Origin: Rhina ancylostomus
Taxonomy: Eukaryota
Length of the DNA stretch: 64,000 nucleotides
Assembly (NCBI GenBank): GCA_030265395.1
Contig: JARFYF010000052.1
Span: forward strand, 116,704,649-116,768,648
Reading direction: 5' to 3'
In this document: positions 6,496-64,000 of the stretch, piece after piece
Layout: each line of letters starts with the position of its first letter
Position numbering within the stretch: position 1 is the first letter of the stretch
Notes under the pieces: model-generated
Seen by the model: the letters and a program-made list of their open reading frames with translations, nothing else
Database searches by the model: none
Told to the model about the DNA's origin: nothing
Position numbers and translations under genes: made by a program

Positions 6496-8069
6496 AAAAA
6501 ATGCACAACATTCTCAATCCAAATGAACTGAAAATATATCAATGACCTGCAAAGAAATAAAACAGGAAGAAAAAGGACACCTCACCCTCCTAGTTTCATC
6601 TCATTTGGACCTCCATTTAACCCACATCTATTCTCTGTTATACAAATCCAGACAAGACAATAACAATGATAATACAATAACAAAATGCAGCAGAGAGAAC
6701 AGAAATGCAAATTTGTAGCTTATAGAAATTCTGCTGAAATTTAATATCATTGCAGGATTTAACAGCTCACCTCAGAATAACATTTAAACAATCAGACAGG
6801 ATAAGCAGGCTTGACAGTAAAGTTAATAGAGCTGGGAGGGCTAGCACTGGTGTTCTACACTATAGATCATATCTTTAAAATTTCTAAAAACGCAAATGTT
6901 TCATAAGTTTTAGCCAATTTCAGAACTTAAGCATCATATGAAATTCTCAGGCAGGCATGAATGGCTGGTTCTCTTGATTCAAGCGTGCATACTTCTGAGA
7001 ATAGCTGACGACAAGCATCAGGGTCACAGGAACAAAGATATTTGCAAGGTGCTAAAATGGAAAGACTACATTGAGGAACCAAACCACAAAATTTGTCATC
7101 TTAAAAAGGAGGAAAATTAATGATACAAAATTGGAAAGGGTCAAGACACACAATTATCACAAATAAATATACACTTGTGCAGTTTACCCATCAAATACAA
7201 ATGAAACATCTTGTGTACCAAGCAAAGAGGCTTTTTTTCACAAGAGCATAGCTAATGGAGAAAAACAGTTCTCCATGCTGGGTATACTCTTTACTACACA
7301 CAACTCTATGCATAAGAATATTATTCATGAATAGGATTGTGTGTAGTAAAGGGTGAAGTGCCTAGGATTGCTGCCAGTTTCAAAGTAAATGTGAGGAATT
7401 AGACTTGCGTATTTAATCTCTGTAGGTTCAAAACTATACAAAGCAGGAACAGGAGACACGAGTGTACTCATCTCAGCCAGAATTCCTGCTTCCAATCATT
7501 AGATAATGATTGCTGCNNNNNNNNNNNNNNNNNNNNNNNNNNNNNNNNNNNNNNNNNNNNNNNNNNNNNNNNNNNNNNNNNNNTTCATACTGGTCTGTCA
7601 GAATATTAATGATAATATGCATAATAGACAAATATTTCCTGGATGAATCTAAAATTTCTGCATGAAAGTGCCCATGTGTGGGAGCACAATCAAGCATTTT
7701 AATAGCTCAGTGGTTTATTGCTAAACAAAGTGGTTTTGGAGCACTTGGCTAAGGGAGTGTCACTTTGATATATATTGTTGCAGATCTTAACATTTCAAAG
7801 CTAGGAACTTGATCAATTAGGATTCGTGATCCACATAAGCATATCAGACATATCCTGCTGTCAAGATGTGCACTTAATGGCATTATTCATACAACACCCC
7901 ATTTCTGGCCCTCAAAGCTATAACCAACCATTGTGGAGCAGGAATTGTACAATGAGGAGCACATTATGCTAGTTTGTTGCTTTTTTACTCCTTGAACAGA
8001 TGCCTTTGACATCAGAAAAACTGACTAAGCATCTTGAAAGTAGACTGCAGGCTGCTCAAACACTTCCTG

Positions 8070-8178
8070 AAATCTGAAATAACAAACCAAATGCTGGAGG
8101 AACTCAGCGGATCAGGCAGCATCTGCAGAGGGAAATGGACAGTCGACATTTTGGGTCAAGACCCTTCACCTGGATTGG
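8070..8178 (-). mobile_element. Penelope-like element terminal repeat with degenerate hammerhead motif
   Basis: Plus strand ATGCTGGAGGAACTCAGCGGATCAGGCAGCATCTG...; near-identical to 49490-49576. Minus strand 8177-8140 reads CAATC CAGGTGA A GGGTC TT GACCC AAAA TGTC GACTG. Confidence 0.75.
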
Positions 8179-8349
8179 GAAACCATTCTATGGCTGCCTC
8201 AGAAATGACACCACTGGCAGCACTCAATAATTGGAGGCATCATTATGGTTATGACTGACCACTAGAAGCAAGTTGGGGCTTGGGGAAGGAGGCAATGCCA
8301 ATCTAGGAAGATCCCATTCTCTGGTTCTTCAGAGATGCCACAATGCCCC

Positions 8350-10879: not shown

Positions 10880-11565
10880 AAAAGGAGGCTACAGTAAAAA
10901 AAAGTTAATTGGAAGGCCAATTCCAAATGGGATAAGAGTGGATCTAACCCAGGTAAACTGGAGCCAAAAGTTGACACACATAAAGGCAGTCAATTGTTCT
11001 GGTACAATTAAGGAAGAGAGGGTATAGCTGAGGCAAAACAAAAAAAATCTAGAGCTGCCTGGATAATGAAAAACATAATAAGATAAAGCCAAAAAGGACG
11101 TGTATGACAAATGCTGGGTTGTAATTACCAGTGAGGATATCTCCAATTCTTTTTAAAATCTGCCAGGAAGTGAAATTAAGATAAGAGGCACAGAAAGTTT
11201 CTGAGAAAAGATTAGCTGCCAACATAAAAAGGGCATGAAAGTTCCATAGGTGTGAAAAGGGTAGTACACGAAGGAGTAGGCTATTAAGGACTAAAACAGG
11301 AGCTTGCACAGAGATTCTGAGGGTACCACTAAGGTACTAAAAAAGTACTTTGATCTGTTGTCACCAGAGAAGAGGTGGTTCTAAAGTAACAATGAAGGAC
11401 ACTTGATTAAGTGATAAATTGATAGCACTGAGGTACTTGAAAAGTTGGCTGAACTTAAAGTAGATAAGACACCAGAACAGAATGGTATGCATCCTAATAT
11501 TTTGAGGGAAGCACAGGAGGAAACTGCGAGGGCATTGACCATAACCTTTCAATACTCATTCAGTG
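10880..11565 (+). mobile_element. Older CR1 ORF2, left half of an interrupted copy
   Basis: LAELKVDKTPEQNGMHPNILREAQEETARALTITFQYS is the pre-RT CR1 motif (LKVDKSPGPDGMHPRLLRE...EALTIIFQSS). Confidence 0.8.
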
Positions 11566-11937
11566 GGCGGTGGGGGGGGGGGGGGGGGGGAAANNNNNNN
11601 NNNNNNNNNNNNNNNNNNNNNNNNNNNNNNNNNNNNNNNNNNNNNNNNNNNNNNNNNNNNNNNNNNNNNNNNNNNNNNNNNNNNNNNNNNNNNNNNNNNN
11701 NNNNNNNNNNNNNNNNNNNNNNNNNNNNNNNNNNNNNNNNNNNNNNNNNNNNNNNNNNNNNNNNNNNNNNNNNNNNNNNNNNNNNNNNNNNNNNNNNNNN
11801 NNNNNNNNNNNNNNNNNNNNNNNNNNNNNNNNNNNNNNNNNNNNNNNNNNNNNNNNNNNNNNNNNNNNNNNNNNNNNNNNNNNNNNNNNNNNNNNNNNNN
11901 NNNNNNNNNNNNNNNNNNNNNNNNNNNNNNNNNNNNN

Positions 11938-14337
11938 ATGAGCCTGGCCAGGTGACTGACCTTTCAGTGGGAGAACAGTTAGGGAACAGTGATCACAACT
12001 CCTTATGTTTTAAGATAGCTAAAGATAAACATAAATATGGACCTTGCAGGAGAGTATTAAATTAGAACAGGGCAAATTACGAGAGAATTAGGCAGGAACT
12101 AGGGAGAGTTAATTGGGAACAGCAGCTTATGGGCAAATCCACATCTTACATGCAGAAGGTATTTAAAGACAAGCTGCACAGAGTACAGGACAAGTATGTT
12201 CCCATAAGGGGGAAGGACAAGGATAGCAAGGTCAGGGAACGTTCGATGACAAGACAGGTGGTGAATTTAGTCAAGAAGAAAAAGGAAGTAAGTGTAAGGT
12301 TTAGGAAGCTAAAATCAAACTGTGCACTTGAGGATTATAAAGAAGTCAGAAAAGAACTGAAGAAGGGAATTAGGAGAGCCAGGAGGAGCCATGAAAAATC
12401 CTTGGCAAGTAGGATTAAAGAGAATCCCAAGGCATTCCATACATGCATCAAGAGCAAGAGGATAACTAGGGAGCAGGTAGGACCATTCAAGGATAAAGGA
12501 GGGAACATGTGCTTGAAGGCAGAAGATGTGGGAGAGGTCCTAAATGAGTACTTTGCATCAGTATTCACCAAGGAGAAGGACGTGGAGGAAGGGGAGATCA
12601 GTGTGGAAGCGTGCTAATATGCTGGGGCATTTTGAGATAATGAAGGAGGTAGTGTTGGGTCTCTTAAAGAACATTAAGGTCGATAAGTCCCTAATGGGAT
12701 ATACCCCAGGTTATTGAGAGAGGCCAGAAATGAGATTGCTGGGGCATTGACCAAGATCTTCGTGTCCCCTCTAGCCACAGGCAATGTCCCAGAGGACTGG
12801 CGAGTAGCTAATGTTCCACTATTCAAGAAGGGAAATAGAGATAATCCTGGGAATTACAGACCGGGGAGTCTCACTTCAGTAATGGGGAAGTTACTGAAGA
12901 GGATTCTCAGGGGCAGGATTTATGAGCATTTGGAAAACCATGGCTTAATTAGGTACAGTCAGCGTGGCTTTTTGTGGGGGAAGTTGAGTCTTACTAACTT
13001 GATTATTTTGAGGAGTTGATGAAGGCTATTGATGAAGATAGAGCTGTAGATGTTGTCTACATGGATTGTAGTAAGGCGTTTGACAAGGTCCCTCATGGGA
13101 GGGTCATCCAGAAGATTAAGTTGCATGGGATCCACAGTGAATTGGCCATTTGGATTCAGAACTGGCTTGCCCATGAAAGACAGAGGGCAGTGGTCAATGG
13201 GACTTATTTTGGCTGGAGGTCTGTGACTAATTGTGTTCCACAGGGATCTGTACTGAGACATCTGCTGTTTATGATACAGATGAATGACCTGGATAAAAAT
13301 GCAGATGGGTAGGTTAGTAAGTTTGCAGACAATATGACAAATAGTGGTGTTGTGGATAGCACAGAAGACTGGCAAAGGATACAATGGGATACAAATCAGT
13401 TGCAGATATAGGTGGAGAAATGGCAGATGACATTCAACCCAGCCAAATGTGAGGTGTTGCACTTTGGGAGATCAAATGTAAAGGGACAAATGTGTCGTGG
13501 TTCTGAGTTCTGGCCCTCAATTTGGCTCCATTAATGCCTTGTTGTCNNNNNNNNNNNNNNNNNNNNNNNNNNNNNNNNNNNNNNNNNNNNNNNNNNNNNN
13601 NNNNNNNNNNNNNNNNNNNNNNNNNNNNNNNNNNNNNNNNNNNNNNAACAGTGTTGATGTGCAAAGGGATCTTGGGATCCAAGACCATAGCTCCCTGAAA
13701 GTGGCTACACAGGTTGATAGGGTGGTAAAGGCAGCGTATGGCATGCTTGCCTTTTAGTCGAAGAAATGAGTTCAAGAGTCAGGAAGTTACACTGCAGCTT
13801 TATAAAACTCTGGTTAGGCTGCATCTGGAGTATGGTATTCAATTCTGGTTGCCCCATTACAGGAAGAATGTGGCAGCTTTGGAGAGGATGCAGAAGAGGT
13901 TTACCAGGATGCTGCCTGGATTAAAAAGGGCATGTGCTATAAAGGAGAGGTTGGACAAACTTGGGTTGTTTTCTCTGGAGCAGCAGAGGCTGAGGGGAGA
14001 TCTGATGGAGGTCCATAAGATTCTGAGAGGCATAGATAGACAGCCCGTATCTTTTTCCCTGGGTTGAAATGTCTAATACCAGAGGGCATGCACTTAAGGT
14101 GAGAGGAGACAAGTTCAGAGGAGATGTGCGGGGCAAGTTTATTTTGTGGTGGAGACAAATACGATAGAGGTGTTCAAGAGGCTCTTAGATAAGCACATAA
14201 ATATGCAGGAATTGGAGGGATATGGACTTGAGTAGGCAGAAGGGATTAGTTTAGTTGGGCATTTGATTACTAATTTAATTAGTTTGACACAACATTGTGG
14301 GCTGAAGGACCTGTTCCTCTGCTGTACTGTTCTATGT
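11938..14337 (+). mobile_element. Younger CR1 LINE: endonuclease C-terminus, RT and 3' tail (about 2.4 kb visible, with stops and frameshifts)
   Basis: VGEQLGNSDHNSL (APE end), VLNEYFASVFT, VPEDWRVANVPLFKKG..PGNYRP, VDVVYMDCSKAFDKVPH, VPQGSVL, KFADN, LYKTLVRLHLEY; tail CTGTACTGTTCTATGT. Confidence 0.95.
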
Positions 14338-15374: not shown

Positions 15375-15669
15375 CCTCATCAGTAGGATTGAACCCACAA
15401 ATGTCACAGATGCATCGGACCCACTTATTCATTTCTTCTTCAGTGTCTGCTACCAGGTAGAAGACACGGTCGATTGTTTTAATGTCAAAAATGTAACTGT
15501 TCTCAAGATCCTTCTTATTAAAGGACAGCCCAGCATCCACTTGCTCACAAAGATTCAAGTCAATGACACGGATCGGTTTCTTTGCATGATCATTTTTGTA
15601 ATATTCCAACACATCCGGATCTCCTGTCAAACGACCACTTCGAAGTACAAACCAGCGCTTCTTCCATGC
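15375..15669 (-). CDS. GAB1: GAB1 (GRB2-associated binding protein 1) internal coding exon 2, encoding most of the PH domain
   Basis: Translates to [98 protein letters not shown], nearly identical to the vertebrate GAB1 PH domain as I recall it ([20 protein letters not shown] and [14 protein letters not shown] favour GAB1 over GAB2/GAB3). Acceptor TTTTCAG|GCA at 15670/15669, donor GAG G|GTGAGT at 15375/15374; 295 nt, phase 0 to phase 1. Confidence 0.96.
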
Positions 15670-33229: not shown

Positions 33230-34125
33230 AAACTGAATGCTGGTTGCATGGGACCAGCACCTTTCAGCATCCCAAAAGGTTCTATTCCCCACACTCTAGT
33301 TGATATTTCAGACTGATGACCTTTCATGGAGTCACAAGAGATTGTAGATGCTGGAATCTGGAGCAACAAACAATTTGCTGGAGGAACTTAGTGAGTCAAG
33401 TGGCATCTGTGGGAGGAAAGGAATTGTCCATGTTTCAGGTGAAAACCCTGCAACATGTTGACAATTCCCTTCCTCCCACATGTGCTGCTCAACCTGCTGA
33501 GCTCTTCCAGCAGATTGTTTGTTGTGCGCAATGACCTTTCATGATCGTTAACCTGGAATGTTGGCAGTTTCTCTCTCCACTGCTTCTGCCTGAACTGCTT
33601 ACTTTTTCCAGCATTCTCTATTTATGCTTCAAATTTCCAGCATCTGCAGTTTTTTTTTGCTTTCAGTCTCCAGCCAATTTCGATGTTACTCAATTTTCCC
33701 TTTCACCACAGATGTTACCTGACCCATGGGGCTTTTCCAACATTCTCCTGTATTTCACATTTCCAGCATTGTATGTTTCAGTGCCAGCAATGTTTCATTT
33801 CATTTTGTCTTGTTTTACAATTCTCCTTACACCAGCTCCAGACAGGTTATCTCCACTAACACCACCTGTTAGTGATTAACTATCACCACCTGTTAGCCAA
33901 CACCAAGCCGTGTCATCCATTTTTGTTGGTCGCCACCTTATCACAGACATGCTCTTTGTTCTCTCCATCCCTGCAACTTAAAATATGCTCGTTTTCTAAC
34001 TTTTCCTCATTTGGACAATAAGTTATCAACTTGAGACATGAACTGCAAAGATACAGACCAACCTGCTGAGTACTTTCAAGTGTGTTTTTCTTTCAGATTT
34101 GCAACATCTGCAATCTTTTTCTCAA
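33230..34125. mobile_element. Cluster of several Penelope-like terminal repeats
   Basis: Repeated ...CTGCTGAG..TTCCAGCA...ATTTCCAGCATCTGCA motifs at about 33590-33650, 33710-33770 and 34060-34112, plus the fold-back insert at 33329-33530. Confidence 0.7.
33329..33530. mobile_element. 202-bp fold-back element built from two inverted Penelope termini, with a 13-bp TSD
   Basis: Inverted arms at 33364-33428 and 33460-33524; ATGACCTTTCATG repeated directly at 33316-33328 and 33531-33543. Confidence 0.85.
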
Positions 34126-49479: not shown

Positions 49480-49903
49480 TAACACACAAAATGCTGGAGG
49501 AACTCAGCGGGTCAGGCAGCATCTCTGGAGGGAAATGGACAGTCAACATTTCAGGTTGAGGCCCTTCATTAGGACTTCATTAAGAGCAGAGATATCCAGT
49601 ATAAAAGGGTGGGGGGTGGAGCAAGAGCTGGTGGGTGATAGGTCGCTCCAGGTGAGAGAGGGGGAGAGTGGGAACAATGCAAGAAGCTGGAAGGTGATAG
49701 GTGGAAGTGACAAAGGCCTGAAGATGGAATCTGATAGGAGGGGTCAGTGGTTGATGGAATAAAAAGTGGATGAGGAGGGGAACTGGAGGGAGGAATACAT
49801 AGGTGATGGGCAGGTCAAGAGGGTAGGGGAGGGGAAAGGGAAGAGGTGATGCTGTCGGTGGGATAAGGAGAAAAGAAAAGGGGGACAGCAGTTACCGGAA
49901 GTT
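49480..49903 (-). mobile_element. Penelope-like element 3' region with degenerate hammerhead motif
   Basis: Terminal repeat shared with 8070-8178, followed by a purine-rich UTR. Minus strand 49576-49541 reads AGTC CTAATGA A GGGCC TC AACCT GAAA TGTT GACT. Confidence 0.75.
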
Positions 49904-49904
49904 A

Positions 49905-51030
49905 GACTCCACACCCTGTGTTCCTATTTCTATTCCTTTCATTTTCCCTGGCTAACCAGGTTCCTCCTGTAGATTCATTGATGCCGTCTATCTGTGGTAT
50001 CTGAGGCTCCCTGTGGTAGTGAATTTGACCATCTAAGGTTAAAGAACTTTCTGTTGAATTTCCACCTTGTTTATTAGCGACAATTTCATATTTCATGAAC
50101 CCTGGGGTATGTGGCACATTTGACTTCCTTGGTTGGGCCACTGAGTGTGGGAGTTGGCAAGTCATGTTGCAGCTGTGGTTGGGCTGTGTTTATGGTGTTG
50201 TGCGTGGTTCTGATCACCATGTTGTGGGAGAAGTGTGGAGCTTTTGAACAGGTGCAGAGGAGGTTCACCAGGATATTGCCTGGATTAGAGAGTATTAGAT
50301 ATAAAGAGAGGTTGGACAAACTTGCATTTTTTCCTCTGGACCTTCAGGAGCCGAGAGGGTGACCTGATAGAAGTATATTAAATTATGAGAGGCACAAATT
50401 GGGTAGATAGTCAGAATCTTTTTCCCCCAGGGTGGAAATATCAAATACAAAAGGGCATAAGAGAGGGGGAAAGTTTAGAGGGGGTTTATGGGACAAATTT
50501 GTTACACAGAGAGTGGTAGGTGCCTGGAACGTGCACAGCAATGATTAAAAGGCACTTCAGCAGACACATGAACAGGCAAGTGATGAAGGGATACAAACCA
50601 TGTGCAGGCATACAGGATAGGTTTAGTTTGGCATCGTGGTCAGTACAGACATGGCCTGTTCTTTTGCTGCACTGTTCCACCTTCTATGCAAGTCCTAGTT
50701 CTTGTTTCAAGTACAAGTGGAAACAACATCTCTGCACTGAAATTTGTCCATAAAAATCCCTATCAGAATCAATTTCAGGTGTTTTTGCAGGAAAGCCTGT
50801 TCAACATTTCCTCCCTAAAACAACCTTTCCGCTTGTGTCTTTCAAGTTTTTTTTCCCCCCACCTTCTACAACGCTCTGTTTAGATATTCTAGTTTGGATC
50901 CAAGAACTATTTCTGTCCAAAGTTGAACATAATACTTCTGCCTTTCAATTATATTCCTCTGGAAATCAATCCTAGTGGAGTGTTTATTTCTGAAGAAAAT
51001 TACCATACCAACTCTTAGTGATCAGAAGTA
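49905..51030 (-). mobile_element. Old minus-strand CR1 split by a younger plus-strand CR1
   Basis: CTCCCTGTGGTAGTGAATT...AAAGAACTTTCTGTTGAATT...ATGAACCCT resumes after the insert as CCTAGTTCTTG...ACAAGTGGAAACA and later TCCAAGAACTATTTCTGTCCAAAG. Confidence 0.55.
50104..50688 (+). mobile_element. 5'-truncated CR1 with an A-to-G hypermutated 5' block
   Basis: EQVQRRFTRILPGLESIRYKERLDKL; tail CTGCACTGTTCCACCTTCTATG; colinear with 13730-14337. Confidence 0.9.
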
Positions 51031-51269: not shown

Positions 51270-51427
51270 GCACAAGAGACTGCAGATGCTGGAATCTGAA
51301 GCAACAAACAAATCTGTTGGAGGAACTCCGTGGGCCGAGCAGCATCTGTGGGAGGAAAGGAATTCGGGTTTCAACTGAGTCCCAGAGATGCTGCTTGACC
51401 CACTGAGTTCCTCCAGCAGACTGTTGG
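51270..51427. mobile_element. Second fold-back Penelope-terminus element
   Basis: Starts CACAAGAGACTGCAGATGCTGGAATCTG like 33333; inverted arms at 51313-51353 and 51380-51420. Confidence 0.82.
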
Positions 51428-51710
51428 TCTAGGCTGACACTTCAGTGCTGCACTGTCAGAGGTGGTGCTTTTCTGATGAGACAGAAAACCCAGGCTCCAT
51501 CACCTCTCAAACATTGACACCAAGCTATCATTTACAGAGTAGGAGTTGATTTCTTCCCACTATTTATCCCTCAACCAATAACAACAAAACCAATTACCAC
51601 ACCTGTGGAAACTTCCTAGGCACAAAATGGATTGATGCATTTTCTACAACAATGGCAACACTTCAGATGGATTTCATGGATGGTAAAGTGCTTAGGAATA
51701 ACCCAATGCC
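51428..51710 (+). mobile_element. Deu-domain SINE (SacSINE1-like)
   Basis: CTAGGCTGACACTTCAGTGCTGCACTGTCAGAGGTG..TTTCTGATGAGAC ... TATTTATCCCTCAACCAA ... TGTGGAAACTTCCTAGGCACAAAATGG. Confidence 0.7.
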
Positions 51711-53879: not shown

Positions 53880-54090
53880 ACACCAAATCTCAAGTAATAG
53901 CAAAAAATATTGAAAACAAATCAGCAAGCAGTTGGCATCTTTGGAAGGAAAAATGACTGTTTCAGATCAAAGACCTTTCATCAGAAATAGTTTTTGAACA
54001 CACACACGCACAAACACAGGCTTGACCTGATCTGCCGAGTGCTTCCAAAAATGTGCGTTTTCATTTCATATTTCCAATATCGGCAGTTAG
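53880..54090. mobile_element. Old fold-back Penelope-terminus element with hammerhead core
   Basis: Minus strand 53984-53955 reads CTGATGA A AGGTC TTT GATCT GAAAC AGTC; degraded inverted arm at about 54020-54085. Confidence 0.6.
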
Positions 54091-59284: not shown

Positions 59285-60619
59285 GAGGAAAATAGTTACG
59301 ACACCCTCTAAATCACAAAATTTAATTTGGGATGTTTGCTTTTGGAAATTATTGTAAAATTATGCTGTATAGATTTTAGAGTGGCAATTTACATGAACTT
59401 TTGCAAGATACTACCACATATCAACAGTCTGAAATAAAATTAATTTTTGCTCATGTGACTTTCACATGAAGAAGAAAGCATTTTTACCAACTAATAAAAA
59501 CCAATTTGCTTCAAACAATATAAAATGGAGAGAAAACCTGAATTACAATCTGCTAAATGGCATTTCATATATGTTAGCACTATTGGCTTCCCAAGTTCCT
59601 GTTTAGCTCACAGCAGAAATGAAAATTGAAGTTCTTATGTGCATAAATGCAGCAGCAGAGTCCCAATTTTTGCTAGATCTATTCATTTTCTACTGATCCT
59701 GAAGTAATCCAAGTTGTGTTCAGTACTGCGTAGCCTTGATGCAAGTTTCTAAATCTTGTGGCAACAATCATAACTGACACCGTCTCTTTACGTCAGCTCT
59801 AAGCAGTGACCAAAATTCCAGAACCGTGAACGGGTTCACTTTATTTTGAATGCAGAGTCCTGGCCTTACTTCAAGCTTCCCTTCTATTGGTTAAATATTC
59901 AATGGCAACATATTTCAGTTGCTTACAAAACAAGTTCATCTCAAGAAGCGGGCAGAGAACATCTGCTTATTAAAGAAAGCTGTTGGTTTAAAGTCACAGA
60001 TTACAGAGGTTACAGATTACAGTGGTCACCAACCTAAGTGGGGAGGAAGAAAAATCACCTCAGATTTAAATGTTCAAGATTGTGCTGTGATTAAGTAATA
60101 GAATAAGATTCAAGTTCAGTCATAATACAAGGCAATATAATACTGTTGTAGTTGACAAAATATGTATATTTTGCAAAATTAGTTTTGTTTAGAAACATTG
60201 TTAATTCTTATGACTAATATTCAAATTAGAGGAATCACAAAGGACAAACAGCAAAGTTGAGCAAAAGAACCAAAATTATGATGCAAAGTGAACTTTCTAT
60301 GAATATTGGGCCTATTTTGCTGTTATATATCTTTGAAAAAACAGCTAAATTCTCCAGACTGTTGCTCCATCATTTTTATCTGTACCCTCCAGAAAGTTTA
60401 GAGATTCTACAAAGACTTATAATAATTCAAAAGACTTTTTTTAAATGACTTCATGGGGACCAGTAAAAAGTTGCTCAATGGACTCTTATGGGGAAATGGA
60501 ATTCTTATGGGGGTGGAGGTGGCTGGCCGTGGGTATACAAGGGAAAACTAGCTTCAAATGATTCCAAAAACTCACTTTGTCATTGCACAATTCAGCTAGA
60601 AGAGCAGATATTATAAGAG

Positions 60620-60755
60620 CAGCAAAGGACTACAAATGCTGGAATCTGGATGAAAAACACAATGATAACACTGGAGAAACTCAGCAGGCCAGGCAGCATC
60701 CGTGGAGAAAAGCAGGTGGTCAACGTTTCGGGTCAGGACCCTTCTTCAGGAATGA
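60620..60755 (-). mobile_element. Penelope-like terminal repeat
   Basis: ATGCTGGAATCTGG...GAAACTCAGCAGGCCAGGCAGCATCCGTGGAG...CAACGTTTCGGGTCAGGACCCTTCTTCAGG. Confidence 0.78.
60717..60754 (-). ncRNA. Minimal type I hammerhead ribozyme motif (catalytic boxes intact, stem I weakened)
   Basis: Minus strand reads CATTC CTGAAGA A GGGTC CT GACCC GAAA CGTT GACCA: CUGANGA box, stem II, GAAA box, ACGT palindromic stem III. Confidence 0.6.
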
Positions 60756-63564
60756 AATATTACAACTTTATCCCAATGACAGAGCTGGTCAGGTACATAA
60801 ATGGATAGCAGCCTGGCTTTGTATTAAGAACTTCACTTAATCTTCCAAATCAAAGCGAATACTCAAACTAACAGGCATAACACATACTTAGTCACACTTA
60901 GTGTAAATAGAGCAGCTCTTTTTGCAACATTGAAATTTAGCCAGGGATCCAAACACTTGCAAATATCATTATTACATGACTCAACTGTGTTAATGAGAGA
61001 TGAAATGAAGAAAAGAGCAGAGGAACTGTGCATCAGATTGCTAACCAAGTTTAGCAAAACCTCAATCCACCAAAAAGCAGGCAGATAACAGAGATTAGTC
61101 AGATCAATTACAGAATGGATTTGAAGGTTATTTGACTCCCAGAATTTCGTTACAATTTCTCTGGCATCAGTACTGAACAACATNNNNNNNNNNNNNNNNN
61201 NNNNNNNNNNNNNNNNNNNNNNNNNNNNNNNNNNNNNNNNNNNNNNNNNNNATATTTCTAGACTTAAAACAAGTCTTAAAATACACATTTTATAGAAAAT
61301 ACTTAATTAGTCAACTGAAACAGAATCATATTATGATATAGCCTTGCATTAGGACAGCACTCAATTGCCATTGTAATATTTAATATAGCACAAGCTTGAG
61401 CATTAAAAAGAAAATAAATTTAAATCCAAGATAACAATTTCTGCAGGTACAAATGTGGTCAGGATTAAATAATTCCAATATAAGTAGGAGTTCTCCTAGA
61501 TCAGTTTTTAAATCACTTGATCAACACATTTTACTGTTAATGATCAGTTCATTTGAAAATCTGCTTACTTGTACAGAAAAACAGCACCATGAGCTGTGGG
61601 TGAAACTATTGCCAGCTCCTGGTCCCTTTTCAATGGAAATCAACTTTGAAAAATCCCAGAATTGAACCATCTACATCAAAACTTGCCAAGACACAATCAA
61701 GCCTTATCTCCACACTCCCTAACCAGCAATGTATTGCTTTTAAAAGATTCTTATCCTATTTATCATGCTCTTCCACAACCTCCTCTGCTCTCTATCCCTG
61801 CTAGCCCCACAAACCTCCACAATCTCTGTGCTACACCAATTCTGGACTCTTACACATGTATATGGAATCCAGCTATTTAATACAGATAATGAAAAGTACA
61901 GGATCACCGTACAAGTCCTTATTAAGCTTTCGACTGAATGCTATTTAATTACATTCTTGAAAGTTGATGTTGTTTTGAACCTCTGACTCAATTACCTTTA
62001 AATAATTCTCGATTTTCTGTCAATAATTAAAACTGTTTGATTAATAAATCAACAATGAATTCGGAAAGCCATACCAATTTAAATGTCAGTTGTAGGAAAA
62101 ATTCCAGAATCATTGCTAAAACAAATAAAAAGACCAAACATCTAAAAGGTGGGAATGATAGTAGAAATAACCTAACATTAATTCCAATGCTTAAACAACC
62201 TAATCAAAGTTTTTGCGATTGTAACAGAAACAGAAAACAATAGCAATAGAGTGGATCTAGTAAAGGTTAACCAAAGGTGCCGCTTATAAGATCTGGATCA
62301 AGTTAATGTTAGATAAAATTAGCAGTATGGAAAAGTAACCTGCAGATAATAGCCAATAATGAGGGGGAAGAATTGGGAAGAGGACAGGCTGGTGTAAATT
62401 AATAACAAGATTGGATTCTTTTCTAGAGGGAAAGAATACCAGAGGGATAATAGATTTATATACTTACTTGGTACCGATTGCAGTTCCAGTTGCTATGGAC
62501 AAACACAGTTGAGGCTGATATCAACTTCAAACCCTCGGACTATGCTTAGTGCAGTGGTATGGTAGACGCTGTACACAGCTGACCTTTGAGACCATTTTAG
62601 CAATTAGGCACAAAATGTTGATTAAAGTCAGAGCTCACTCCAAGTCAAGAATGTTTGCCAGATCTACATCATCAATTTGATATTCTATTTTTAAATGGTT
62701 AGTCTAACAAAAGGTACAGCTGCACCAAAGCAAGCAATGGCCTAAACAGGAAGGGAAAACCTTGGAACTAATCCCATTCCTCAATCCTGATGATTTTTTC
62801 CCATCAGATTATGCAACACTGGGTAAGTGCAGGAAACAGAGTAAAAAAAATTAAAATATTCAAACTTGAATTGAGCACCTTATCCCATTTAGAAAAGCAT
62901 CACTTACAATAAAAGGATTCCCAATTCCTGAACACATTTAGAAATTTAAAAAGAGTTTTATATTGGAAGTCTTGTGCTGGATTAGTATATAAACATTTGT
63001 TCCTGTAGTTTCAGGAAGAAGTACATCCTGTCAAGTAATGCTTTTGTACACATTTGGGGAAAATTAATAGTTGTTCACAGCTTTCAAATTTCTATCTCAA
63101 GTGTAGGCTAATATGTAAACTTCTGAAACTGATAAACATTTAATAAAATCAAATTAAAGTCCAACAATTTGTAAACTTGTGCAACTATCATTTTTTTTAA
63201 TCATTTCACTATCAAAAAGCAAAACAGTGTCGGCAGAACTATGAAATAACAACAGGATATGCTTGAAATATACAGTGGGTTCTCTAGCATGTGTGGAGTG
63301 GGGAATGGTGTTAAACTTCTTACTTAGATCAATGGCTTTACGTTAGATTTAGGGGGAAAAAAATCAAACTAAAAAATGCTTAAAATTACACAGAAGAGGA
63401 AGGAGTGTAGAAAATAAAAGGTAATGCCTGTGGAAAGAGTTGAAAAACTGAAGAACATAAATGGGGGTGATGCTGGCTGGGAGAGGGTGGTGAGGGCTTG
63501 TTAATCACAGCTCACTTTCTTGGGGAGATGCAAATGGAAAGCGATAACGGCAACAGACTGGGGA

Positions 63565-64000
63565 GAGAAATGCTACTGGAAATGAAATAAACACAACTTT
63601 ACAGGTGTTGGAAATACTCCAGAAGTCAGGCAGCATCTTTGGAGAGAGGAAAACTGAGTTAACATTATGGGTTGATAAGCTTTTATCAGAACTGCTAGAA
63701 AAAAAACTGCAAGGGCTGATTTTCTGAAACTGATGAAAATTCAACTTTGAGTCCTTAGGATCAACATGCTGAGATGTTGTCCCTCAAGCTTAAGTCAGGT
63801 TTCATTGGCACAGTGCAAGAAGCCAAAACTAGAGTTAAAGTGGAAGAGGGATGGAGGATTAAAGTGACAGGCAACTCTAAGATCAGAGTAACCTTGCAGA
63901 CTGAGCAGAGATGTTCTGCATAGCAGTCATACCATCAGCGTTTGATTTATCCAATGCAGTGGAGATCACACTGCAAGCACCAAATGCAGCCACACCAAAT
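63565..64000 (-). mobile_element. Penelope-like retroelement: GIY-YIG endonuclease relic plus terminal repeat
   Basis: Minus strand reads GCIWCLQCDLHCIG*IKR*WYDCYAEHLCSV, then (frameshifted) DLRVACHFNPPS, matching YCIxCxxCxLxYIGETKRxLxDRFAEHL...PVACHFN. The terminal repeat with a decayed hammerhead is at 63657-63693. Confidence 0.8.

Follow-up and report, generated by a model that had tools for sequence, protein, structure and literature searches.

The five hammerhead-like motifs in the window (the whole stretch of 64,000 nucleotides of Rhina ancylostomus DNA that was analysed) are very probably decayed fragments, truncated at the 5′ side, of the 3′ terminal repeat of a Penelope-like element (PLE) present in high copy number. 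Its consensus forms a minimal type I hammerhead of the known kind; the copies in the introns are probably inactive passengers. Six direct observations carry this reading: linkage of the motif to reverse transcriptase (RT) and GIY-YIG frames, a complete element unit, two alternative 3′ ends, target-site duplications (TSDs), fold-back pairs, and decay of the catalytic core at the CpG rate. From published work on PLEs, the element's protein would be expected to nick DNA and to begin reverse transcription inside the tail that follows the motif, approximately 65 or 100 nt 3′ of it; copying would usually stop early, leaving stubs of 100-500 bp, and cleavage by the motif of the parent element would depend on dimerization or on help from the element's protein. 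A published feature of PLEs is thereby extended to a cartilaginous fish in which the family is very abundant. No description of PLE hammerheads in cartilaginous fish was found in the literature; the supplements of PMC4209133 (file 1) and of a 2026 preprint, or Repbase, may hold one.

Copies of the motif in the window

The window includes coding exon 2 of GAB1 (15376-15669, minus strand), which encodes the PH domain and is 100% identical to a ray GAB1 protein. Exon 1 lies approximately 50 kb beyond the end of the window and exon 3 before its start, so intron 1 holds four of the five motifs and intron 2 the one at 8.1 kb. A sequence-only reading of the window had described the motifs as a family scattered through GAB1 introns; their location in introns 1 and 2 stands, but a tie to GAB1 does not, because the repeat is genome-wide, and nothing points to a regulatory role in GAB1. 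All five motif strings were found where that reading had placed them on the minus strand, and all five are followed by a common tail of approximately 100 nt that it had missed. A profile of the five motifs yielded 12 family matches in the window, a number that one iteration raised to 13, seven on the minus strand and six on the plus strand, so the family has no strand restriction.

The copy at 60.7 kb is an insertion of approximately 140 bp (60617-60756, minus strand) that consists of a motif and 3′ tail of PLE subfamily A. Upstream of 60756 it has no homology to any of the other loci compared. Its 5′ junction falls inside the truncation hotspot of the family, between about -35 and -33 relative to the predicted cut, and its 3′ end is the second of the two family 3′ ends. 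It is flanked by a likely TSD read from the sequence, the 5′ copy of which (60755-60765, minus strand) matches the 3′ copy (60606-60616, minus strand) at nine of 11 bases. The minimal type I hammerhead relic (60717-60754, minus strand) has a CUGAAGA box (60749-60743), one bulged A, a stem II of 4 bp, GAAA and the ACGU palindrome, and the cut is predicted between 60722 and 60721. Both catalytic boxes are therefore kept, as had been claimed, but only two of the five pairs of stem I are left and N17 is U. The tail that follows the motif on its 3′ side is more conserved than any other part of the family, the hammerhead included. From fold prediction, a long hairpin is predicted at 60632-60703 (minus strand), with fold z-scores (0.8 to -1.5) that are not significant; such a hairpin is also predicted for the tails of the family, in three subfamilies. 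The tail may be the RT initiation region and is a candidate RT-binding element.

The other four copies, all on the minus strand, are decayed in different ways. In the copy at 8049-8182 (motif 8177-8140) the first box is broken (CAGGUGA) and U4, A6 and G12 are lost. The copy at 49481-49906 (motif 49576-49541) includes approximately 330 bp of upstream terminal repeat; its G5 is changed and its stem II damaged. The old copy at 53929-53997 (motif 53984-53955) has both boxes, with decay in stem I and in stem III and the cut site, and a weak inverted partner on the plus strand (54026-54089). The copy at 63572-63717 (motif 63693-63657) is of the oldest type and has lost G8, G12 and A13. By clustering of the window copies, the 60.7-kb copy falls into one group, the 8.1- and 49.6-kb copies into a second and the 63.7-kb copy into a third (the 54-kb copy did not span the profile), so that three or more subfamilies are represented among the five.

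Two features with fold-back pairs, each on both strands, are additional to the sequence-only reading. One (33328-33778) comprises a fold-back pair (33328-33455 on the minus strand, 33455-33529 on the plus strand) and further copies of the family tail, and the region 33328-34120 holds at least five family fragments inside 800 bp. The other (51270-51434) is a fold-back pair of tails from which the motif itself has been lost. Sub-threshold Rfam matches to miRNA families there (MIR2118_2 and mir-5856, 51314-51419) were rejected as being in reality the fold-back palindrome of PLE tails. Elsewhere in the window, broken reading frames on the plus strand (11418-14067) resemble the reverse transcriptase of a LINE, putatively of the CR1 type.

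None of the five copies is intact; in every one, a box, stem I or the cut site is disrupted. The description of a complete type I hammerhead thus fits the consensus but no single copy in the window. Both boxes and the UH cut site are kept in 13/36 and 17/51 motif-spanning copies of two genome samples, and the stems as well in 4/36 and 4/51, so retention of the boxes at 60.7 kb is ordinary, being seen in about a third of copies. These figures bear on the idea that one or more of the intronic copies, above all that at 60.7 kb, have stayed active or been domesticated as ribozymes and cleave the GAB1 pre-mRNA, either singly or paired with another copy. That idea would suit the orientation of the five listed copies, which are all sense to GAB1, and the survival of the boxes, stem II and ACGU at 60.7 kb, but it is very unlikely: the same copy has two pairs in stem I, U at N17 and a fold z-score of +0.86, about a third of ordinary copies keep both boxes, the strand split of family matches in the window is nearly even, and in its closest neighbours (63.7 and 54.0 kb) the core or the stems are broken. 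G12 is changed in 9/27 and 18/43 copies of two samples, like other CpG bases, compared with 0-5 copies for the core bases outside CpG. Decay of G12 at the CpG rate indicates neutral decay after insertion, and from their sequences the intronic copies of the window are likely dead.

Consensus and abundance of the family

The composite that had been assembled from the five copies proved to be, letter for letter, the majority sequence of a 100-copy sample (sample B, defined below), and the minimal type I hammerhead holds at the level of the family. The CUGANGA and GAAA boxes and the UH cut site are present in the majority sequences of sample B and of a second sample (sample A), and in an intact element (L110). 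The ACGU palindrome of stem III, which had also been proposed, and the bulged A between positions 9 and 10.1 occur in all four sequences that were parsed. When 236 motif-spanning copies were clustered, eight groups resulted. Both boxes survive in five of them; of the other three, one differs by a change that CpG decay accounts for, another has an altered A9 and the last is too old. The proposed covariation in stem I is borne out by pair 2.1-1.1, which is CG in 145, TA in 34, CA in 28 and TG in 15 of the 236 copies (Fisher p 3e-12, the copies not being independent). Covariation of pair 10.1-11.1 in stem II is weaker (p 0.007); CpG decay confounds it, and here too the copies are not independent.

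The sequence-only reading had also proposed Rfam as a check, in which no hammerhead appeared among 11 matches with E up to 10, probably because loop III is missing. In the predicted minimum-energy folds of monomer and dimer, the core is mispaired. For each of the four sequences modelled, perfect ones included, the active dimer is less stable than the cofold minimum by 13-17 kcal/mol, so folding gives no support for activity.

Judged by its sequence, the family consensus is the minimal hammerhead of type I that PLEs are known to carry. As described for metazoan PLEs (PMC4209133, Cervera and de la Pena 2014), such minimal hammerheads are of type I, lack loop III, have a palindrome at 15.2-16.2, one base between 9 and 10.1, a G10.1-C11.1 pair and a short stem I, lie in terminal repeats, and occur as several consensus families per genome, mostly as single dispersed motifs, and the ray family agrees in each of these respects. 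It differs from that description in its short stem II (4-5 bp) and, among the hosts which that paper names, in its host, a cartilaginous fish. Single motifs did not cleave in that work, and dimers cleaved weakly in vitro.

That the family occurs far beyond chance is evident from exact matches in the 2.2-Gb assembly: 65 for a perfect 38-nt motif (as in L066:1501-1538), 91 for a 36-nt tail word of the 60.7-kb subfamily and 2,800 for a 33-nt tail word of another subfamily, compared with none for the reversed control of each. Extrapolation from the density in the window (13 matches in 61.5 kb of called bases) gives a copy number of about 10^5, a rough figure that rests on one window. If decayed copies are counted, this is far above the 4,000-9,000 copies given for coelacanth and Xenopus in PMC4209133.

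Alternatively, the resemblance to a hammerhead could be incidental, the region being kept as a promoter, splice signal or protein-binding site without ever cleaving, the parent element included. The better conservation of the tail than of the motif would be expected in that case, as would the spread of subfamily A despite an A-C mismatch in stem I and U at N17, the cluster with A9 changed, and the report that ribozyme mutants of an Anolis element had no effect on insertion in vitro (PMC11167929, Frangieh et al. 2024). Against it, differences between subfamilies fall on N7, loop II and N17, positions that are free in a hammerhead, and the changes in stem I are compensatory. An incidental resemblance is accordingly judged improbable, and descent from a PLE whose repeat carries a true hammerhead remains the preferred reading.

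The parent element

A Penelope origin of the motif had been proposed from a GIY-YIG relic beside the copy at 63.6-64 kb. The relic, interrupted by stops and frameshifts, belongs to the same element; it occupies 63770-63989 (minus strand) and runs approximately 215 bp past the end of the window. Its translation has no Pfam match and no database homologue, and its identity was established by DNA comparison, in which 63770-63989 is 73% identical over 224 bp to the endonuclease of L110 (E 1e-29). The origin itself is upheld by motifs behind RT/GIY-YIG open reading frames (ORFs) and by a complete element unit. A GIY-YIG search of the genome found nine loci, and a fragment from one of them retrieved a protein with RT and GIY-YIG domains (P0003), which has 95 matches in the genome. 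Among the 25 of these loci that were inspected, 18 match to residue 465 or beyond, at the C-terminus. A motif on the same strand follows the end of the ORF by 269-523 bp in nine of the 18, or in 11 if distances of 770-870 bp are counted; none was seen downstream of the remaining seven, one of which stops at the end of its contig. The sequence of the 60.7-kb subfamily itself sits behind ORFs at four loci (L097, L100, L101 and L107).

The complete unit, L110, is a contig that represents a circular unit of 3,210 bp. Its ORF of 917 aa is 48% identical to P0003, and the motifs DKG, YIDD, a CX4CxxC linker (residue 783) and YIGET can be recognized in it; the Pfam matches to RVT_1 (E 4.6e-5) and GIY-YIG (E 2.3e-4) are both below the Pfam cut-offs. 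The hammerhead motif lies at 924-962, between the stop codon and the next start. L110 is an unplaced contig, and its nearest copies in the genome are 70-79% identical over the main matches. The link to PLEs does not rest on it. Together with the perfect motifs, this intact element provides material for assays.

Several observations on L110 (C2762) concern its own history and sequence. Of the words sampled from 560-1500, 74-82% occur in six other organisms, and one contig is identical to L110 over 455 bp. L110 may be a young family that was collapsed in assembly and is common to close relatives, or a transfer, or a contaminant. Just 3′ of the cut, at L110:950-975 and in older subfamilies, a branch-point-like sequence, a pyrimidine tract and CAG are followed by ATG, and a second pyrimidine tract and CAG precede the true start at 1096. 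These splice-like patterns may mark an intron in the 5′ UTR. Other frames of PLE type with RT and GIY-YIG, unlike L110, are found on small contigs (L049, L050, L051 and L047; 315, 377 and 671 aa, and pieces), and no family motif was found beside them.

L110 has the single ORF with RT and C-terminal GIY-YIG domains that characterizes EN+ PLEs, and the family has the motif in its terminal repeat and insertions that are tandem, inverted and tailed. EN+ PLEs of the Neptune and Nematis clades, as described in PMC8557442 (Craig et al. 2021), likewise have an RT, a Zn-finger-like linker and, at the C-terminus, a GIY-YIG domain, as well as partial tandems, an inverted 5′-truncated copy, an optional tail of 30-40 bp and a hammerhead in the repeat. 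The CX4CxxC sequence of L110 agrees with the CX2-5CxxC linker before GIY-YIG that defines these clades, and points, by the linker definition in PMC8557442, to Neptune or Nematis as the likely clade. In contrast, the clade of the Anolis Poseidon element PAc lacks the linker according to PMC11167929; the ORF of PAc is reported there to start inside stem II, whereas the ATG of L110 is approximately 140 nt 3′ of the cut.

Ends of the insertions

The ends of insertions were mapped in samples anchored on the 3′ side of the cut, which leaves the 5′ ends unbiased. Sample A comprises 90 of the 91 matches to the tail word of the 60.7-kb subfamily, and sample B the first 100 of the 2,800 matches to the 33-mer, on one contig, reduced to 97 when three duplicated or gapped rows were dropped. 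In sample A there are two 3′ ends approximately 35 nt apart, as expected from the two internal RT start sites of PAc (PMC11167929). The hammerhead of that element is reported to cleave only with the element's protein and to be dispensable for insertion in vitro, and its main substrate to be uncleaved RNA; most copies here likewise run through the cut site.

At the 5′ side, junctions pile up at -36 to -27, on the 5′ strand of stem I. In sample A there are 17 events in 434 nt at risk (p 7e-7, for an interval picked after the data were seen), and in the independent sample B 23 events in 545 nt at risk (p 5e-7). The hotspot rate is about 4% per nt, compared with 0.4% and 1.2% upstream in the two samples. 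Approximately 8/29 older copies that run into the ORF also start at -35 to -30, with flanks that are unrelated or inverted, as judged by eye with a divergent query. An excess of junctions at -1 to +2 in sample A (eight in 293 nt, p 0.005) was considered as a fossil of cleavage in vivo at the cut site and rejected when it failed in sample B (three in 376 nt, p 0.71), although the GUC site of B should cut better. This failure to replicate also favours the incidental reading of the hammerhead, which is kept as improbable on the grounds of the subfamily variation given above.

The sequence around the hotspot suggests, with a probability just short of even, that it marks the 5′ terminus of the element's transcript. 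In three subfamilies (A, B and L110), the hotspot bases fit an initiator-like pattern, YYANWYY. The same bases also form a pyrimidine tract followed by AG. A cause linked to splicing is less likely but keeps a fair share of the probability: helix I is where an intron of the Penelope element of D. virilis ends (PMC4209133), although no shared upstream exon, as a spliced template would leave, was seen in the flanks of hotspot copies. A fuller version of the start-site idea is tentative: the transcript would start at the first base of stem I, with the ribozyme as the 5′ tip of the RNA, and RT primed internally at the 5′-proximal tail would copy no more than the first 100-140 nt. A large part of the very numerous short hammerhead stubs in ray genomes would then be accounted for. 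If so, the ribozyme could act as a decapping or monomer-release switch, and the stubs would record, as fossils, where PLE transcripts start. The hotspot makes one question testable: how the start of PLE transcripts is placed with respect to the hammerhead, and if RNA that has been cleaved ever retrotransposes.

A hotspot of this kind could also mean that the short copies are a separate non-autonomous family, similar to a retrozyme or SINE, with its start at stem I and with the PLE protein mobilizing it in trans. The TSDs in 7/26 non-fold-back hotspot copies agree with such a family, and retrozymes derived from PLEs have been reported in vertebrates including one chondrichthyan (10.64898/2026.07.22.740005). 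As far as described there, these non-LTR retrozymes resemble the ray family in coming from PLE terminal repeats and in having a type I hammerhead, but they are tandem non-coding units, whereas the copies in the window are dispersed truncated monomers or fold-backs with no tandem arrays among them. Within one subfamily the 5′ ends are spread continuously between +20 and positions beyond -160, and that same subfamily sequence lies behind ORFs at the four loci named above. A separate family is therefore quite unlikely, and truncation of the PLE itself is preferred.

TSD-like repeats flank 10/71 non-fold-back copies, compared with a mean of 0.15 in a shuffled control. Inverted partners are present at 22/55 and 28/68 resolved junctions of the two samples, and an inverted partner is a known layout of PLEs according to PMC8557442. 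The fold-backs at stem I look as if cDNA ending there had primed on itself. At six loci (L021, L026, L162, L225, L242 and L244), the fold-back junctions use both strands of stem I as microhomology.
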